Origin: Escherichia coli
Lineage (GTDB): Bacteria; Pseudomonadota; Gammaproteobacteria; Enterobacterales; Enterobacteriaceae
Assembly (NCBI RefSeq): GCF_045037415.1
Contig: NZ_CP173438.1
DNA: 64,000 nt
Direction: 5' to 3' (one strand)
A program made the position numbers and the translations under genes. The notes beneath the pieces are model-generated. The model ran no database searches. It was not told the origin of the DNA and saw nothing but the letters and a program-made list of their open reading frames with translations. Shown here in pieces: positions 21,102 to 58,384 of the stretch (positions are counted from its first letter, which is position 1; each line of letters starts with the position of its first letter).

Positions 21102-23450
21102 CTACTCTTTTACTAATTTTCCACTTTTATCCCAGGCGGAGAATGGCATGGGTTTCTGGTACAGATACCCCTGAGCCTGAACACATCCTAATTTGATTAA
21201 TTCACGCGCAACGTCTTCGCTCTCTACGCCTTCCGCAATCACCGGGATCCGGTTATAGCGTGCCAGATCGAAAATAATGCGCACAATTTTTCCCGCAGTA
21301 CCGAAAATATCGCCGGTAAATTGCGAATCCACCTTTATACTGTCTGGATTAATTTCATAAAAACGTTTCAGGTTTGACAAACCGGTGCCAAAGTCATCAA
21401 TCGATACCCGTACCCCTTGTTTACGCAGTTGTTCAATATTGAGATAGAAATGTTCATTAATTCGCTCGATCACGGTTTCGGTGATCTCAACACAAAGGCT
21501 GTTCGCCTTCAGGCCATTTTCTTTCATGATGGTAGTAAAACGCTCATGAAAGTGTGGTTCGTTTAACTGCCAGGGCGAAACATTAATATGCAGTAAGAAA
21601 TCATCCTTCAGCGACGCACGCTGACTAAAATGTCTGAATTCACCCATCGCGGTTTTAATAATTTGATAGCCCAGCTCATTGATAAACCCGATATCTTCAG
21701 CAATGGTAATGAACTTCAGCGGTGAAATAATCCCCCGCTCCGCAGACACCCAACGGCACAACGCCTCCGCGCCCAAAATGGTGCGGGTGTTAATATCAAC
21801 AATCGGTTGATAGACCAGGAATAGTTCGCCAATTTCCATTGCATGGCGAATATTACGCGCAATCCAGATATTCTCTTCTATTTCGTTGAGTTTCGCATCA
21901 TCACAGAAAATAAACTCTGAGAACATATGGTTGCGGATACTGGAAATCGCCAGTTTCAGCTTTTCTGCGTAACTCCAGGCGTTTTCCCCCTGCAAAGGTT
22001 CACAAATAGCAGACTTATGGATGCGCAGATTGCGGTAGCCAAAACTGCTGTCAAAATCGTTTACCGTCGCTATCTTACGGGTAAACGTCTGTACATTTTC
22101 CCGGCACAGGAGTAAATAGAGATCGGCATTAAATGTCACGATATCGCAGCATTGCGCATATTTCTCGGCAATTCGCTGACACAATTTCCTGACGATTTTA
22201 TTGCGTTCATCAACACCAAACACCGCTTCCACAGCTTCCAGACCACACAGTTTGATGATCCCCACAGCCAGATACTGATTATTGTTGGACTCAATAATCG
22301 CCATATTTTTAATAAAACCGCTTTCCTGATCGTAAGAGATCAGCGAGAGCAATTTATTTGCCCGTTCAATTTCAGCATCTTTCATTTCCGCGATCGAATT
22401 TTTGATGCTGATAATCTCTTTCGCATCGCCTTCACGAATCTTCAGGGCCTCGATTTGATCCGTAGAGTCAGGCAAAAACGCCAGCGTATTGACCAAATCT
22501 GTCATTTCAGAAAATTGACGACGGAAAACTCGAGTGGTCATTAAATAAACCACCAGCAATACGATAATAATGAAAGCAAACGGCAGATAAAAAAGTTTAT
22601 CTGATGCGTTCAATAAATTACCACCAGGATAATAAAAATAGATTTCGAATAATGCGTTGTTTGGCACCGCTGATGTTTTTTCAATATATTCCGTATCGAC
22701 AGAATCAATAATATTATAATTACCTTCGCTATTATAAATAATCAATTTTTCACGAGCGAGTTGATTCTTAGCAATGATCTCATGACCTTGCTTTAAAAAT
22801 AGAACTTCATCATTAGCGCTGATGTGATCAAGATACTCGTTCAGATATCGCCAGTTTAAATCGACATGAATTTTATCTACCGCTAACAAATCATGATCTT
22901 TGCCGTTGATGTGTAGCGTAAAAGAGATACATTTTTTACCCGGACGATCAAAGCAATTGTATGCCGGGTTCCAGCTGTTGTTAGAGTCATCTGAAGCCAT
23001 CGACCACGGTCGTTTCGATGGGTTAAAATCGGCAAAAATAACCCGCCCTGACTCGTCGACAAGCGGTCCATTTACTTGTTCCTGATGATAAACAACGATT
23101 TTATCATTCGCCCTCCGCGAAAAGAGATAATATTTATTATCATCAAGTACCAGTCCCACCGAGTCTAAAAATGGCATCATTTCCATTTTCAGAATCACGG
23201 CACGTTGAATCTCCTCTGTATTTTTTAATAAATACAGTGAGTCCTTTAATGTCAGGGCCGAACGTTCAATATCTTTAAAGAAATAGCCAACGTTTTTCTG
23301 AATAAGTTCAAAGCGGCTATCGGCACGTTTTACCGCGCGTTCCGATACCAGTTGATAGTTAATGATGAAAAAAAGACCAATAAATGACAATGCTGCCAAT
23401 AAAAATAAAATTATCAGCCTTATCTTTATCTTTTCGTATAAACTCAGCAT
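21102..23450 (-). CDS. pdeI: Membrane c-di-GMP phosphodiesterase PdeI (YliE), EAL domain
   Basis: ORF track 782 aa; TM helices flank a periplasmic region; EAL motif (GAEALCRW); 7 bp upstream of dgcI on the same strand. Confidence 0.94.
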
Positions 23451-51571: not shown

Positions 51572-52494
51572 CGCTGGCGATTGACAAAACGGCGGCGCTG
51601 CTCGTCGTTCATAAAGGTCCAGGCTATAAAGCGGCTCTGCTTTTGCCCCTGGGCCATCTCTTTTTTTACCACCTTCACCGCACCTACGTCCGTCAAAGCA
51701 CGATACAACGGCGGTAAGTTTTCACCACGAGATACCAGCGAGGTAAACCACATCACCTGCTTCGCGAAGCCTTTGCTCTCTTCAATCATCTTTTTGATAA
51801 AAGCGACCTCACCGCCTTCACACCACAACTCCTGTTGCTGACCACCAAAGTTCAGTGCATCGTCTTTGTTCAGCCCCAGGTTACGGCGTTTACGTTCACT
51901 ACCTGCCCGTGCCGCAGCGGCGGAATCGTGGAATGGCGGGTTACACAAGGTCGCATCGTATTGCTCGTTTTTATGGATGATGCCGTTAAAAATCGCCCCA
52001 CTCTCTTTTTGCCGACGCAGACGAATGGCGCGGTTAAGCCCCGGATTAGCACTGATGATCGCCTGCGCACTGCTTAACGCCTGGCTGCTGGTTTCACTAC
52101 CGGTAAAACGCCAGCCATATTCATGTACGCCAATCAGCGGATAAATACAGTTCGCACCAACGCCGATATCCAGAATGCTGGCATTAGCTGGAATTGTTCC
52201 GCTTGCTTCGGCCAGTAAATCGGCAAGGTGATGAATATAATCCGCCCGGCCCGGTACTGGTGGGCAGAGAAAACCGTCCGGGATATCCCAGTTCGCTACG
52301 GCGTAAAAATGGGCCAGCAACGCCTTATTGAGCGCCTTCACCGCCAGCGGATTGGCAAAGTCTACGCTTTGCTCCCCGGCGGGTGTAAGCGTGAGGAATT
52401 GCCTGAGTTCAGGATTGACCTGACAAAGCGTGGCGAGATCGTAGCGGCTGTGATGACGGTTGCGCGGATGCAACCCCGGTTTCTGGGCGGACAT
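51568..52494 (-). CDS. rlmF: 23S rRNA m6A1618 methyltransferase RlmF (YbiN)
   Basis: ORF track 51568..52584(-); internal ATG gives 308 aa [20 protein letters not shown]...; SAM motif [11 protein letters not shown] and NPPF. Confidence 0.92.
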
Positions 52495-52769
52495 AGCATT
52501 CTCCTTTAAGCAGCGGCGTAAGATACCCGCATAACGCGACAGGGTAAATATCTGGCTGCGTTTATCATTTCTAAAAACCTTCACATGGCTATGGTTTATG
52601 GCAATTCACCATAAAAAACATCATCATGCATGTCATTGATTTGTCTTATTTTGTAAAAACACATCGTTCAAAAAATAAGCGCATCTCTGTCAATTTTTTG
52701 CGTCATTTTCATCGCGCAGGCGACCTACACTTATCTGGCACTACCCGTTGTATTTATGAGGATGTCATT

Positions 52770-53030
52770 ATGAAAAAGTGCCTCACACTACTGATTGCCA
52801 CCGTCCTGAGCGGAATCTCTCTCACGGCTTATGCCGCGCAACCGATGAGTAACCTGGACAGTGGTCAACTACGGCCCGCCGGTACCGTTTCGGCAACTGG
52901 CGCATCAAACCTAAGCGATCTGGAGGATAAACTGGCAGAAAAAGCGCGCGAACAAGGCGCGAAAGGTTATGTCATTAATTCCGCAGGCGGAAATGACCAG
53001 ATGTTCGGTACTGCAATCATCTACAAATAA
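52770..53030 (+). CDS. mcbA: Small periplasmic protein McbA (YbiM), DUF1471 family
   Basis: ORF track 52626..53030; internal ATG gives 86 aa MKKCLTLLIATVLSGISLTAYA...; C-terminal half about 60 percent identical to YbiJ in this window. Confidence 0.88.
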   Translation: MKKCLTLLIATVLSGISLTAYAAQPMSNLDSGQLRPAGTVSATGASNLSDLEDKLAEKAREQGAKGYVINSAGGNDQMFGTAIIYK

Positions 53031-53165
53031 CCCCACCAACGTAACTGCATTCGCCTCTGGATGCAGTTTTCGTCCAATTTGTAAGCAAAAAACATCAAAT
53101 ATGAACGCAATGTAAATAAATGTATTTCTTTTTCGCGCAATGGGTGATAGAAAATCGCGCCAAGT

Positions 53166-53190
53166 GATAATGCTTATCAATATTATTATC
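53166..53190. promoter_or_regulatory. Fur box upstream of fiu
   Basis: GATAATGCTTATCAATATTATTATC, resembling the GATAATGATAATCATTATC consensus, about 105 bp upstream of the fiu ATG. Confidence 0.6.
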
Positions 53191-53294
53191 ACTTGCACGT
53201 ACGCTATCACGGGATTAACAGTGGCATCGCATCCGCAGAGATGCTTTCTCGTGACAGTGAAAATTTCACCATATAAGAAAAAGTCACCTGCAAA

Positions 53295-55577
53295 ATGGAA
53301 AACAATCGCAATTTCCCTGCCAGACAATTTCATTCGCTCACGTTCTTTGCCGGTCTTTGTATTGGTATTACGCCTGTGGCACAGGCACTCGCTGCCGAAG
53401 GGCAAGCTAACGCGGATGACACGCTGGTTGTCGAAGCATCAACGCCTTCGCTTTATGCGCCACAAAAATCTGCCGATCCGAAATTCTCGCGTCCGGTAGC
53501 GGATACTACCCGCACGATGACAGTGATTTCTGAACAAGTGATTAAAGATCAGGGTGCAACCAACCTTACCGACGCGCTCAAAAACGTCCCCGGCGTGGGT
53601 GCGTTTTTTGCGGGTGAGAACGGTAACTCCACCACTGGCGACGCCATTTATATGCGCGGTGCCGATACCTCTAACAGTATTTATATCGATGGCATTCGCG
53701 ATATCGGCAGCGTCTCGCGCGACACCTTCAATACCGAGCAGGTCGAAGTAATTAAAGGGCCGTCCGGCACCGACTACGGGCGCAGCGCACCGACAGGCTC
53801 GATCAATATGATCAGCAAACAGCCGCGCAATGATTCCGGCATTGACGCCTCCGCCAGTATTGGCAGCGCCTGGTTCCGCCGCGGCACGCTGGACGTCAAT
53901 CAGGTCATTGGTGATACCACTGCGGTGCGCCTGAATGTAATGGGCGAAAAAACGCACGATGCCGGACGCGACAAAGTCAAAAATGAGCGTTACGGCGTCG
54001 CCCCTTCTGTCGCTTTTGGCCTTGGTACAGCGAATCGTTTGTATCTTAATTATCTGCATGTCACCCAGCACAACACGCCAGACGGCGGCATTCCGACCAT
54101 CGGTTTACCGGGTTTTTCTGCCCCATCTGCGGGAACAGCGGCCCTGAATCATTCCGGAAAAGTTGATACGCATAACTTTTACGGCACGGATTCCGATTAC
54201 GACGATTCGACCACCGACACCGCTACCATGCGTTTTGAGCACGACATCAACGATAACACCACCATTCGCAACACTACGCGTTGGTCGCGCGTAAAGCAGG
54301 ATTACCTGATGACGGCGATTATGGGTGGAGCGTCGAATATTACCCAGCCCACCAGCGATGTGAATAGCTGGACGTGGTCACGCACGGCGAATACCAAAGA
54401 TGTGAGTAACAAAATTCTCACCAACCAGACCAACCTGACCTCGACGTTCTATACCGGCGCTATCGGTCATGATGTCAGTACCGGCGTGGAATTTACCCGC
54501 GAAACACAGACTAACTATGGCGTTAATCCGGTGACGTTACCGACGGTAAATATTTATCATCCTGACAGCAGCATTCATCCCGGCGGCCTGACGCGCAACG
54601 GCGCAAACGCCAATGGTCAGACGGATACCTTCGCAATTTATGCCTTCGATACGCTGCAAATCACCCGTGATTTTGAGCTGAACGGTGGGATCCGTCTGGA
54701 TAATTATCATACTGAATATGACAGTGCCACCGCCTGCGGCGGCAGCGGGCGCGGTGCCATCACCTGCCCTGCTGGCGTGGCAAAAGGTTCTCCGGTAACC
54801 ACCGTCGACACCGCCAAGTCGGGCAATCTGGTGAACTGGAAAGCCGGGGCGCTGTATCACCTGACGGAAAACGGCAATGTTTATATTAACTATGCCGTTT
54901 CCCAGCAGCCGCCGGGCGGCAACAACTTCGCCCTTGCGCAGTCTGGCAGCGGTAACAGTGCCAACCGCACCGATTTTAAACCGCAAAAAGCCAACACCAG
55001 CGAGATTGGCACCAAATGGCAGGTTCTGGATAAACGCCTGCTACTTACCGCCGCGCTGTTCCGTACTGATATTGAAAATGAAGTTGAGCAAAATGATGAT
55101 GGGACTTATTCGCAATATGGTAAGAAACGTGTCGAAGGCTATGAGATATCCGTGGCCGGGAATATCACCCCCGCGTGGCAGATGATTGGCGGCTATACCC
55201 AGCAAAAAGCAACTATCAAAAACGGCAAAGATGTTGCCCAGGATGGTTCCTCATCGCTGCCGTATACCCCGGAACACGCCTTCACCTTATGGAGCCAGTA
55301 TCAGGCAACCGATGATATTTCTGTTGGTGCGGGCGCACGGTATATCGGCAGTATGCATAAAGGTTCAGACGGCGCGGTGGGAACGCCAGCATTTACCGAA
55401 GGTTATTGGGTCGCCGACGCCAAACTGGGGTATCGGGTTAATCGCAATCTCGACTTCCAGCTAAACGTCTACAACCTGTTTGATACCGATTACGTCGCCT
55501 CAATCAATAAGAGCGGCTACCGTTATCACCCGGGCGAGCCAAGAACCTTCTTGCTCACAGCCAATATGCATTTCTGA
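53295..55577 (+). CDS. fiu: TonB-dependent catecholate siderophore receptor Fiu
   Basis: ORF track 760 aa; signal peptide, TonB-box region, C-terminal barrel ending ...LTANMHF. Confidence 0.96.
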
Positions 55578-55618
55578 TTCAGATGTGGGGCGCAGGCCCC
55601 ACTTTTTGGAGAACTTGT

Positions 55619-56296
55619 ATGATGTACCACATTCCCGGCGTGTTATCGCCACAGGACGTCGCCCGTTTTCGCGAACACCTGGAACAAGCCGAATGGGTGG
55701 ATGGACGCGTCACCACCGGCGCACAAGGTGCGCAAGTTAAGAACAATCAACAAGTAGACACCCGCAGCGCCCTGTACGCCGCCCTGCAAAATGAGGTGCT
55801 GAACGCGGTTAACCAACATGCTTTGTTCTTTGCCGCGGCCTTGCCGCGTACCCTTTCCACGCCGCTGTTTAATCGCTATCAGAACAATGAAACCTATGGT
55901 TTTCATGTGGATGGCGCAGTACGCAGCCATCCACAAAACGGCTGGATGCGCACTGACCTTTCTGCCACGCTGTTTTTAAGCGATCCAGAAAGCTACGACG
56001 GCGGCGAACTGGTCGTTAATGACACCTTCGGGCAACATCGGGTAAAACTCCCGGCAGGCGATCTGGTGTTGTATCCCTCCAGCAGCCTGCATTGCGTGAC
56101 ACCCGTAACCCGCGGCGTGCGAGTGGCATCATTTATGTGGATCCAGTCGATGATCCGCGATGATAAAAAGCGCGCCATGCTGTTTGAACTGGACAACAAT
56201 ATTCAGTCGCTGAAAAGCCACTACGGCGAAAGTGAAGAGATCCTGTCGCTGCTCAATCTTTATCATAATCTGCTGCGGGAATGGTCGGAGATCTGA
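55619..56296 (+). CDS. ybiX: Fe(II)/2-oxoglutarate-dependent PKHD-type hydroxylase YbiX
   Basis: ORF track 55583..56296; ATG at 55619 gives 225 aa [17 protein letters not shown]...; HxD...H iron-binding motif (FHVDGAV). Confidence 0.9.
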
Positions 56297-56369
56297 CGCT
56301 TGAACTGCCCGAGTTCGTCCCTATATTAGCTACACTTAACTGTACAAGCATTGATATGGGGAGGACGAT

Positions 56370-56636
56370 ATGGCATCCGGTTGGGCTAATGATGACGCCG
56401 TCAACGAACAGATCAACAGTACAATTGAAGATGCGATTGCCCGCGCTCGGGGTGAAATTCCGCGTGGCGAAAGCCTGTATGAATGTGAAGAGTGCGGTGC
56501 CCCTATCCCGCAGGCCCGTCGGGAAGCCATTCCTGGCGTGCGCTTATGCATTCATTGTCAGCAGGAGAAAGATTTACAAAAACCAGCTTATACAGGATAT
56601 AATCGCAGAGGTTCGAAAGACAGCCAGTTACGTTAA
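56370..56636 (+). CDS. ybiI: DksA/TraR-type C4 zinc-finger protein YbiI
   Basis: ORF track 88 aa; CEECGAPIP...LCIHCQ four-cysteine finger. Confidence 0.9.
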   Translation: MASGWANDDAVNEQINSTIEDAIARARGEIPRGESLYECEECGAPIPQARREAIPGVRLCIHCQQEKDLQKPAYTGYNRRGSKDSQLR

Positions 56637-56900
56637 CTACAACTGGCGGGATGTATAGCGAATATAATTTGTATTTTGCGTGGCATTCCGTGCCTTTAAC
56701 GCTACCGTGACTGCCACGCGGTATAAAACAAGTCCATAAGTACAACAAATAAATGGTTTATCAGTATGTTAGATATCAATCAATTTATTTGAACAAGGTG
56801 GTCAATTCTCTTCGATTTTATCTCTCGTAAAAAAACGTGATACTCATCACATCGACGAAACAACGTCACTTATACAAAAATCACCTGCGAGAGATTAATT

Positions 56901-57161
56901 ATGAAAACTATCAATACTGTTGTTGCTGCTATGGCTCTTTCAACTCTGTCATTTGGCGTGTTCGCGGCGGAACCGGTAACGGCATCCCAGGCACAGAACA
57001 TGAATAAAATCGGCGTGGTTTCTGCCGATGGCGCATCCACCCTCGATGCCCTGGAAGCGAAACTGGCTGAGAAAGCCGCGGCGGCCGGTGCCAGTGGATA
57101 CAGCATCACTTCTGCCACCAACAACAATAAATTAAGCGGTACTGCGGTAATTTATAAGTAA
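56901..57161 (+). CDS. ybiJ: Small periplasmic protein YbiJ, DUF1471 family
   Basis: ORF track 86 aa MKTINTVVAAMALSTLSFGVFAAEP...; paralogue of McbA. Confidence 0.9.
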   Translation: MKTINTVVAAMALSTLSFGVFAAEPVTASQAQNMNKIGVVSADGASTLDALEAKLAEKAAAAGASGYSITSATNNNKLSGTAVIYK

Positions 57162-57271
57162 TTCGTAAGCTGGATCAGGCGTTTACGCTACGTTCAGCAC
57201 AAGTATTTCCCTGTCTGTTTGCCGACAGACGCATATGCTCTAACCCTCATGATCCTATGTTACCCTTGTTT

Positions 57272-57298
57272 GCCCGTCCGCCACTGGACGGGCTTTTT

Positions 57299-57300
<2 letters not shown>
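57272..57300. terminator. Terminator between ybiJ and ybiC
   Basis: GCCCGTCCGCCACTGGACGGGC followed by TTTTTTT. Confidence 0.65.

Positions 57301-58384
<1,084 letters not shown>

Follow-up and report, generated by a model that had tools for sequence, protein, structure and literature searches.

A probable leaky terminator in the fiu–ybiX spacer of a Fur-controlled transcription unit of Escherichia coli

The PiuA–PiuC pair of Pseudomonas aeruginosa and the CciT–CciO pair of Caulobacter crescentus each consist of a Fur-regulated TonB-dependent transporter followed directly by a PKHD-type dioxygenase dependent on 2-oxoglutarate (2OG) and Fe(II). A functional link between CciT and CciO has been shown genetically, and one has been suggested for ybiX, the corresponding E. 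coli gene. The E. coli locus, its control by Fur and its operon status are already known and belong to textbook-level annotation: fiu–ybiX has been called an operon and, in K-12, a Fur-regulated one (Beauchene et al. 2015; Gao et al. 2023). Fiu and YbiX/PiuC affect the uptake of cefiderocol, a siderophore antibiotic. Elsewhere in E. coli, the rplL–rpoB intercistronic attenuator is an intra-operon partial terminator that sets gene dosage. Here we analyse fiu, ybiX and ybiI in a 64-kb stretch of E. coli DNA (hereafter referred to as the window). We favour, with a probability of about 0.8, a Fur-repressed promoter upstream of fiu that drives a single unit, fiu > ybiX > ybiI, with a leaky terminator in the fiu–ybiX spacer. 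The practical value of this analysis is a correction: the spacer is not empty, and contains a mapped, conserved and probably leaky terminator.

The genes are arranged in the order mcbA–fiu–ybiX–ybiI–ybiJ (Table 1) and share 97% DNA identity with K-12, with 145 SNPs and no indels across 4.6 kb. The same locus in K-12, fiu–ybiX(–ybiI) (b0805–b0804–b0803), has its Fur box at the equal position and an identical terminator sequence, hairpin included. K-12 differs in having A at Fur box base 53181, where the window has T, and at two SNPs in the ybiX–ybiI spacer, which give the window alone a sigma-70-like −10 element. The fiu, ybiX and ybiI genes lie on the + strand, separated by 41 bp and 73 bp, and these gaps, the gene coordinates and the protein families are all as given in an earlier note on this DNA, with Pfam agreeing for Fiu, YbiX and YbiI. 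Fiu contains the Plug and TonB barrel domains. YbiX matches 2OG-FeII_Oxy_3 (E = 1e-14) and PKHD_C (E = 2e-18), aligns with PiuC (E = 8e-70) and has the H96-x-D98...H158 iron triad and the 2OG-binding arginine, R168, aligned with the 3DKQ and PiuC structures. For ybiX, the annotated MMYHIP start is preferred, as a GGAG precedes it by 7 nt and it lines up with the first residue of the homologs from Shewanella and Pseudomonas; a 237-aa open reading frame from 55583 was rejected because its start falls within the spacer hairpin. An Rfam scan of 52500–57400 (E ≤ 1) yielded no match in the range of the finding and two weak ones, both 3′ of ybiJ.

Table 1 Features of the fiu–ybiX–ybiI locus (window coordinates)
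Feature	Position	Strand	Description
Candidate sigma-70 promoter	53144–53171	+	GTGATA-16-GATAAT; consensus match only
Fur box	53166–53190	.	Two overlapping 19-bp boxes, 105–129 bp upstream of fiu ATG
fiu	53295–55577	+	TonB-dependent catecholate receptor, 760 aa
Probable leaky intrinsic terminator	55585–55607	+	Stem GTGGGGC/GCCCCAC, loop GCAG, T5 at 55603–55607
ybiX Shine-Dalgarno	55608–55611	+	GGAG; directly adjoins T tract, 7 nt before ATG; conserved in alignment
ybiX	55619–56296	+	PKHD-type 2OG-Fe(II) hydroxylase, 225 aa; ortholog of PiuC/CciO
ybiX–ybiI spacer, likely with separate ybiI promoter	56297–56369	+	RpoS SELEX peak, sequence matches
ybiI	56370–56636	+	DksA/TraR-type C4 zinc-finger protein, 88 aa
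Hairpin spanning ybiI stop codon	56623–56647	+	Palindrome; no U tract

Fur boxes were scored against the 19-bp consensus GATAATGATAATCATTATC, which usually occurs as overlapping repeats phased by 6 bp. Box 1 (53166–53184) matches at 16 of the 19 positions, and box 2 (53172–53190), which overlaps it with a 6-bp shift, matches at 14. Across the 64 kb, no site other than box 1 comes within three mismatches of the consensus, and 100 shuffles gave none. The 25-bp Fur-box-like element that the earlier note placed ahead of fiu begins at 53166 and withstands motif scoring. Pseudocitrobacter, Mangrovibacter and another E. coli carry comparable boxes, located at −120 to −129. Elsewhere at the locus, Fur-like sites are absent, the best matches having 12 mismatches in the fiu–ybiX spacer and 9 in the ybiX–ybiI spacer. 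The published Fur ChIP-exo peak P24 (840869–840893 in old K-12 coordinates) corresponds to about 53156–53180 of the window, about 115–139 bp 5′ of fiu, and lies over the Fur box; the transcription unit to which the literature assigns it is given as ‘fiu-ybiX’ or as ‘fiu,ybiX,ybiI’. The candidate fiu promoter, a consensus match, would share its −10 element with the Fur box, whose opening six bases coincide with it; the fiu transcription start site is predicted near 53178–53180.

Published transcript levels extend this control to all three genes. In fur mutants relative to wild type, RNA rises in MG1655 from 40 to ~1760 for fiu, 10 to ~380 for ybiX and 22 to ~185 for ybiI (log2 fold changes of 5.5, 5.2 and 3.0, respectively), and in W3110 from ~2 to 2355, ~3 to 399 and ~2 to 71. 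Across published data, fiu derepression in fur mutants spans log2 fold changes of 5.5–10, and the RNA of the upstream gene mcbA is unchanged. Expression and ChIP were measured in K-12, W3110 and W rather than in the window strain, which is 97% identical, with the same terminator and a Fur box differing by one base. The ChIP-exo peak and the derepression together uphold the earlier claim that Fur acts through the box upstream of fiu. The three genes share a strand, are separated by short gaps, are all derepressed in fur mutants and have a single upstream Fur site, as expected of an operon; since all three rise when Fur is lost and the sole Fur site lies upstream of fiu, we treat fiu–ybiX–ybiI as one unit. 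An iModulon bears the operon-style name ybiIXL, ybiL being an older name of fiu. A junction-spanning fiu–ybiX–ybiI transcript, by RT-PCR, Northern blot or long read, was not found in the literature; the SMRT-Cappable-seq supplements do not list fiu, ybiX or ybiI, and the TRS supplements (RNAtag-seq termini) contain neither these gene names nor the coordinates 839217–839222.

The fiu–ybiX spacer contains a hairpin with a 7-bp stem, including six G-C pairs, and a 4-nt loop, which folds alone with −14.4 kcal/mol and is the best terminator-like match in our terminator scan; the fold of the whole fiu–ybiX junction has a z-score of −2.7. In M63 glucose, Term-seq mapped the 3′ terminus of a fiu RNA to K-12 839219(−). 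In the indel-free coordinate map this position corresponds to window 55607, the last T of the T5 tract. Two hallmarks of an intrinsic terminator are present: a stem-loop followed by a U tract, and an in vivo RNA 3′ end within that tract. The earlier note had described a fiu–ybiX co-transcript with no terminator between the genes, and had named a terminator in transcript data as the observation that would speak against it. Term-seq does put a fiu RNA end on a canonical hairpin with its U tract between the genes, and by that yardstick the simple version of the co-transcript fails; a single Fur-controlled unit survives, through read-through, whereas unobstructed transcription does not. The 41-bp gap, the shared strand and the common Fur response would all suit a plain co-transcript with nothing between the genes, but given the hairpin and T5, the RNA 3′ end located on it and a 5-fold RNA drop, we consider this reading barely credible. 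As a separate observation, on which our reading does not draw, the junction fold predicts an extended pairing in which the end of fiu engages the Shine-Dalgarno sequence and start codon of ybiX.

RNA levels fall about 5-fold across the hairpin, and the ratio of fiu : ybiX : ybiI RNA in fur mutants is about 1 : 0.2 : 0.03–0.1. A leaky terminator would leave ybiX RNA at about one fifth of fiu RNA, and the step-down corresponds to a read-through fraction of about 20%, such that about 80% of polymerases appear to stop, although longer survival of fiu RNA that ends in the hairpin, and not how often polymerase terminates, could account for part of the 5-fold step. The ybiX/fiu ratio is 0.17–0.22 in derepressed cells and ~0.26 in repressed MG1655. 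The arrangement resembles the rplL–rpoB attenuator in having a hairpin and U tract between co-regulated genes with a fixed minority of polymerases reading on; unlike attenuators of that type, it shows no sign of regulated read-through, the ratio being about equal with and without Fur repression.

That similarity of the ratio in repressed and derepressed cells also speaks against ybiX having its own Fur-regulated promoter, either within terminal fiu sequence or within the spacer, which would make the two genes separate co-regulated units with an efficient terminator between them. The mapped terminator does separate the genes, and a weak RpoE SELEX peak (4.3) has been reported within fiu, upstream of ybiX. 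However, the best Fur-like match over the final 300 bp of fiu together with the spacer has 8 mismatches, and that in the spacer itself 12; the Fur ChIP-exo signal is reported only upstream of fiu; and the hairpin, T tract and Shine-Dalgarno sequence together fill the 41-bp spacer. The nearest promoter-like match on the + strand upstream of ybiX lies at 55072–55100. Moreover, an ISKpn8 insertion in the spacer, selected by cefiderocol and similar in phenotype to loss of ybiX, was read by its authors as cutting ybiX off from the fiu promoter. A separate Fur-regulated ybiX promoter is accordingly very improbable. The cefiderocol MIC goes up when cirA and ybiX are both knocked out, and the spacer is also an IS1397 site in strain BH100. 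Given these landings of insertion sequences in the spacer and the role in cefiderocol uptake, the dependence of ybiX on read-through is relevant to the reading of resistance mutations in the spacer.

The stem is invariant in Escherichia, Citrobacter, Kluyvera and Mangrovibacter, and the loop and flanks vary. All stem positions being invariant in the enteric sequences compared, covariation carries no information for or against pairing. The U tract is only five residues long. Citrobacter and Mangrovibacter retain the hairpin with a shortened U tract or none, a hint that protection of the RNA 3′ end may be as important a function of the hairpin as termination. More widely, receptor–hydroxylase synteny was seen in 90 loci. 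Terminator-like hairpins in the sense orientation occur at 22 of these 90 proteobacterial junctions, as compared with 2 in antisense (p = 3.6e-5); unlike fiu–ybiX, most junctions lack one, and only about a quarter have it.

These comparisons bear on a different role for the hairpin, as an RNA-stability element: transcription would run unimpeded, the RNA would be cleaved and 3′ exonucleases would stall at the stem, so that fiu RNA would be stable and the RNA beyond it unstable. Conservation of the stem without a U tract in Mangrovibacter and with only TTT in Citrobacter suits this possibility, as do REP-like palindromes at the corresponding place in Pseudocitrobacter. REP elements act as 3′ stabilisers, as at malE–malF. 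Furthermore, Term-seq, in the framing of its own paper, cannot tell termination from processing. By contrast, the E. coli RNA stops at the final U of its hairpin–U5 element, which is the signature of intrinsic termination, whereas exonuclease stalling usually leaves an end nearer the stem base; T-rich tails are retained in E. coli and Kluyvera; and the strand specificity of the T tracts at homologous junctions favours termination signals over hairpins alone. We infer that the fiu 3′ end at 55607 arises from termination rather than trimming, and regard a purely stabilising role as unlikely, if less so than the two readings above.

The favoured unit with a leaky terminator would operate as follows. 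In iron-replete cells, Fur–Fe(II) would occupy the two overlapping Fur boxes, over the likely −10 element, and when iron is scarce, transcription would begin from the fiu promoter. Most polymerases would then halt at the GC-rich hairpin and U5 in the spacer, and about one in five would pass into ybiX, resulting in much receptor mRNA and less YbiX hydroxylase mRNA. YbiI, which is TraR-like, would receive still less Fur-driven mRNA, and would have an additional stationary-phase promoter of its own.

Tentatively, and with more doubt than belief, the spacer hairpin might be a selected, repeatedly arisen dosage-setting attenuator, whose read-through also brings YbiI under iron starvation. If so, minority read-through in enterics would connect Fur to stringent-like transcription control through YbiI as a putative RNA-polymerase-binding protein. 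The terminator-like hairpins at receptor/PKHD-hydroxylase junctions across Proteobacteria are unrelated in sequence, and among the receptor–hydroxylase loci examined, ybiI lies downstream of the pair only in Escherichia, Citrobacter and Pseudocitrobacter.

YbiI itself, of which PDB 2KGO is the NMR structure, matches zf-dskA_traR in Pfam (E = 2.5e-12), with its four cysteines arranged as CEEC...CIHC. It is a homolog of TraR, the F-plasmid regulator that acts in the RNA polymerase secondary channel (E = 2e-11), the alignment spanning the helix as well as the CxxC...CxxC zinc ribbon, and on this homology its binding to RNA polymerase is putative. Unlike TraR, YbiI is chromosomal, controlled by Fur and by stationary phase, and has a 15-aa C-terminal extension. 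The auxotrophy of a dksA mutant is reported, as data not shown, to be rescued by multicopy or overproduced ybiI.

That ybiI follows ybiX after 73 bp was correct as to position and incomplete as to expression, as the gene responds to Fur along with its neighbours and also seems to possess a promoter of its own. In K-12, genomic SELEX gave an RpoS peak of 19.6 in the ybiX–ybiI spacer, and the LB Term-seq data show an abundant 3′ end for ybiI and list none for fiu; on these two grounds, a separate sigma-S-type promoter for ybiI seems likely, with a start predicted near 56343, for which the conserved CTACACT at 56330–56336 is a −10 candidate. Another match in this spacer, TTGAAC-16-TATATT (56300–56327), was rejected as a general ybiI promoter because it is specific to the window, K-12, the SELEX strain, having TGGATT there. 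The ybiI RNA ends, by Term-seq in LB at OD 0.4 and 2.0, at K-12 838167, which corresponds to window 56659.

The E. coli mcbA–fiu–ybiX–ybiI–ybiJ locus occupies 52.6 to 57.2 kb of the window, and we put at about 0.8 the probability that it forms a Fur-repressed fiu–ybiX–ybiI unit in which a leaky intrinsic terminator follows fiu and a likely second promoter precedes ybiI. Of 5,426 complete E. coli genomes, 5,421 gave a match to a 3.9-kb locus query, in some cases at 100%. Window 52000–57188 aligns with K-12 MG1655 at 97.1% identity, in reverse orientation and free of indels, so that the K-12 coordinate equals 894826 minus the window coordinate. The gene families and the gaps of 41 bp (fiu–ybiX) and 73 bp (ybiX–ybiI) proposed in the earlier note were exact. 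Paralogous DUF1471 genes lie on both flanks.

Features of the locus in window coordinates
Feature	Position	Strand	Description
mcbA	52770-53030	+	DUF1471
Fur box	53166-53184		Fur consensus match
Second Fur box	53172-53190		Overlapping, shifted by 6 bp
fiu	53295-55577	+	TonB-dependent receptor; plug and barrel (Pfam)
Terminator	55585-55607	+	Hairpin and T5
ybiX	55619-56296	+	PKHD-type 2OG-Fe(II) hydroxylase (Pfam)
Sigma-70-like match	56300-56327		Specific to the window strain
CTACACT	56330-56336		Conserved; candidate sigma-S-type element
ybiI	56370-56636	+	DksA/TraR C4 zinc finger (Pfam)
ybiJ	56901-57161	+	DUF1471

Motif scoring bore out the proposed Fur-box-like element upstream of fiu. The box shares 16 of 19 bases with the 19-bp Fur consensus and is the sole match with three or fewer mismatches in the 64-kb window (0 in 100 dinucleotide shuffles); the second box (14/19) gives the usual overlapping arrangement. 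A promoter match identified from the consensus only (GTGATA-16-GATAAT) has its −10 hexamer in common with the Fur box, which would thus overlap the candidate fiu promoter. A published Fur ChIP-exo peak (840869–840893), attributed in MG1655 to the unit 'fiu-ybiX' and in W3110 and W to 'fiu, ybiX, ybiI', has coordinates that fit only an older K-12 numbering (offset +777), which places it at approximately window 53156–53180, over the Fur box. Pseudocitrobacter, Mangrovibacter and another E. coli likewise have Fur-like boxes, at positions −120 to −129. A box with five or fewer mismatches precedes the receptor gene at 24 of 63 loci, compared with none of 63 coding controls, a comparison that is only indicative because upstream and coding DNA differ in base composition. 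The second-best match in the window (23126–23144, GATAATATTTATTATCATC, 15/19) lies within the pdeI coding sequence and is probably a chance or cryptic site.

Apart from one wrong statement, that no terminator separates fiu and ybiX, what the earlier note observed is real; the interpretation it gave is broadly correct and has been published before. In the spacer, the fiu stop codon TGA is followed by TTCAGAT, a GTGGGGC/GCCCCAC stem of seven pairs (six G–C) around the 4-nt loop GCAG, and then by TTTTT, GGAG, AACTTGT and the ybiX ATG. This hairpin was the top-ranked terminator-like match of the scan and has an isolated folding energy of −14.4 kcal/mol, and the fold of the 66-nt junction surpasses those of 198 out of 200 shuffled sequences. 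In the Term-seq data of Adams et al. 2021 (eLife, PMC7815308; Supplementary file 1, M63-glucose sheet), a 'primary' fiu 3′ end is listed at K-12 839219 (minus strand), which maps to window 55607, the final T of the T5 run. Transcript data thus show a fiu–ybiX terminator, the result that the earlier note had itself named as refuting. The M63 data contain further 3′ ends 77 nt within fiu (K-12 841454, window 53372) and 344 nt within ybiX (K-12 838863, window 55963), the latter downstream of an imperfect hairpin and the run CCTTTCT; transcription may end early at these sites, or the RNA may be processed there. In the minimum-energy fold of 55563–55626, the ybiX Shine–Dalgarno sequence and AUG pair with the last fiu codons and stop around the terminator hairpin, a modelled pairing that would permit translational coupling in read-through transcripts.

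For a comparison of the junction, a degenerate DNA pattern for the YbiX C terminus (YHNLLRxWSE) yielded 120 loci in species-representative genomes, 90 of which have a Fiu-like receptor gene directly upstream on the same strand (median gap, 71 nt). Among the enteric loci, Escherichia, Citrobacter youngae, Kluyvera and Mangrovibacter share an invariant stem, whereas the loop (GCAG, GTAA, GCAA or TGCG) and the flanks vary. Strict terminator-like hairpins at the 90 junctions number 22 in the sense and 2 in the antisense orientation (p = 3.6e-5); a relaxed scan gave 26 versus 8. Together, the invariant stem and the sense-strand excess indicate that the hairpin is under constraint and that, at the sequence level, this receptor–hydroxylase gene pair repeatedly carries an intra-operon stop signal. 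The tail is T-rich in E. coli and Kluyvera, TTT in Citrobacter and absent in Mangrovibacter, and this loss of the U tract from some genera although the hairpin stays keeps alive the unlikely alternative that the hairpin stabilizes RNA rather than terminating transcription. In Pseudocitrobacter, REP-like palindromes replace the GTGGGGC hairpin; at two loci (L078 and L080), they are of the GCCTGATAAGCG.AGCGCATCAGGC type and the spacer is lengthened to 64–80 nt.

A terminator after fiu is compatible with co-transcription, which still holds because the genes downstream of fiu all follow Fur, and neither ChIP-exo nor sequence revealed a Fur site other than the one upstream of fiu. Gao et al. 2023 (PMC10164565; column identity checked) give RNA-seq values according to which fur deletion in MG1655 raised fiu from ~38 to ~1,760, ybiX from ~10 to ~380, ybiI from ~22 to ~185 and ybiJ from ~31 to ~75, and left mcbA, upstream of fiu, unchanged; derepressed levels in W3110 were ~2,355 for fiu, ~399 for ybiX, ~71 for ybiI and ~32 for ybiJ. 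Elsewhere in the locus, the closest approach to the Fur consensus still carries 12 mismatches in the fiu–ybiX spacer, 9 in the ybiX–ybiI spacer and 8 when the final 300 bp of fiu are taken together with the fiu–ybiX spacer. RNA steps down ~5-fold over the terminator, with ybiX/fiu ratios of 0.17–0.22 under derepression and ~0.26 in repressed MG1655, and this similarity suggests a constant leak of about one fifth rather than regulated attenuation. An iModulon bears the operon-style name ybiIXL, in which ybiL is presumably the old name of fiu. The literature treats fiu–ybiX as a Fur operon, and we found no direct junction-spanning transcript in published data. The proposed co-transcript therefore stands as an already published Fur-linked unit with read-through, but not as an uninterrupted one, as the terminator intervenes.

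ybiI shares the Fur response of fiu–ybiX but shows independent behaviour as well. Published genomic SELEX data include an RpoS-holoenzyme peak (19.6) within the ybiX–ybiI spacer, where the +777 offset also places the SELEX coordinate 837732; judged by sequence, CTACACT appears a better sigma-S-type candidate than the sigma-70-like match. In the LB data (OD 0.4 and 2.0), where the fiu end is unlisted, the ybiI RNA 3′ end (K-12 838167, window 56659) is abundant. The ybiI stop codon falls within a 7-bp hairpin, and this 3′ end maps 12 nt beyond the hairpin, with no U tract (56623–56659). The 2.4- to 8-fold rise of ybiJ in fur mutants implies some read-through past the ybiI end, or indirect control. 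For YbiI, on which Blankschien et al. is cited, an NMR structure is available (2KGO), and the protein aligns with TraR (E = 2e-11); among the sampled loci, only those of Escherichia, Citrobacter and Pseudocitrobacter have ybiI after ybiX. Directly 3′ of ybiJ (57160–57300), K-12 has ~89 bases more than the window and, in the matching stretch, annotations for the sRNA ZbiJ and the small protein YbiE; a weak Rfam match to the REP-type naRNA4 (E = 0.19) lies at 57168–57231.

YbiX has the H96-x-D98...H158 triad and R168 and shows 50–55% similarity to PKHD hydroxylases of known structure, PiuC among them; the literature examined contained no definition of its substrate. Caulobacter CciT/CciO genetics and E. 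coli cefiderocol data tie YbiX functionally to the adjacent receptor. A 2025 preprint describes a cefiderocol-selected ISKpn8 insertion in the fiu–ybiX spacer, read by its authors as severing ybiX from the fiu promoter, and a cirA ybiX double knock-out whose MIC was greatly raised. In E. coli BH100 (L123), the spacer match ends within the hairpin (window 55597) and is followed by the IS3-like IS1397, with ybiX and ybiI absent there; the spacer palindrome may be an insertion hot spot. Several E. coli genomes whose matching sequence is otherwise 100% identical have an IS4 element within fiu, which splits the gene into fragments.
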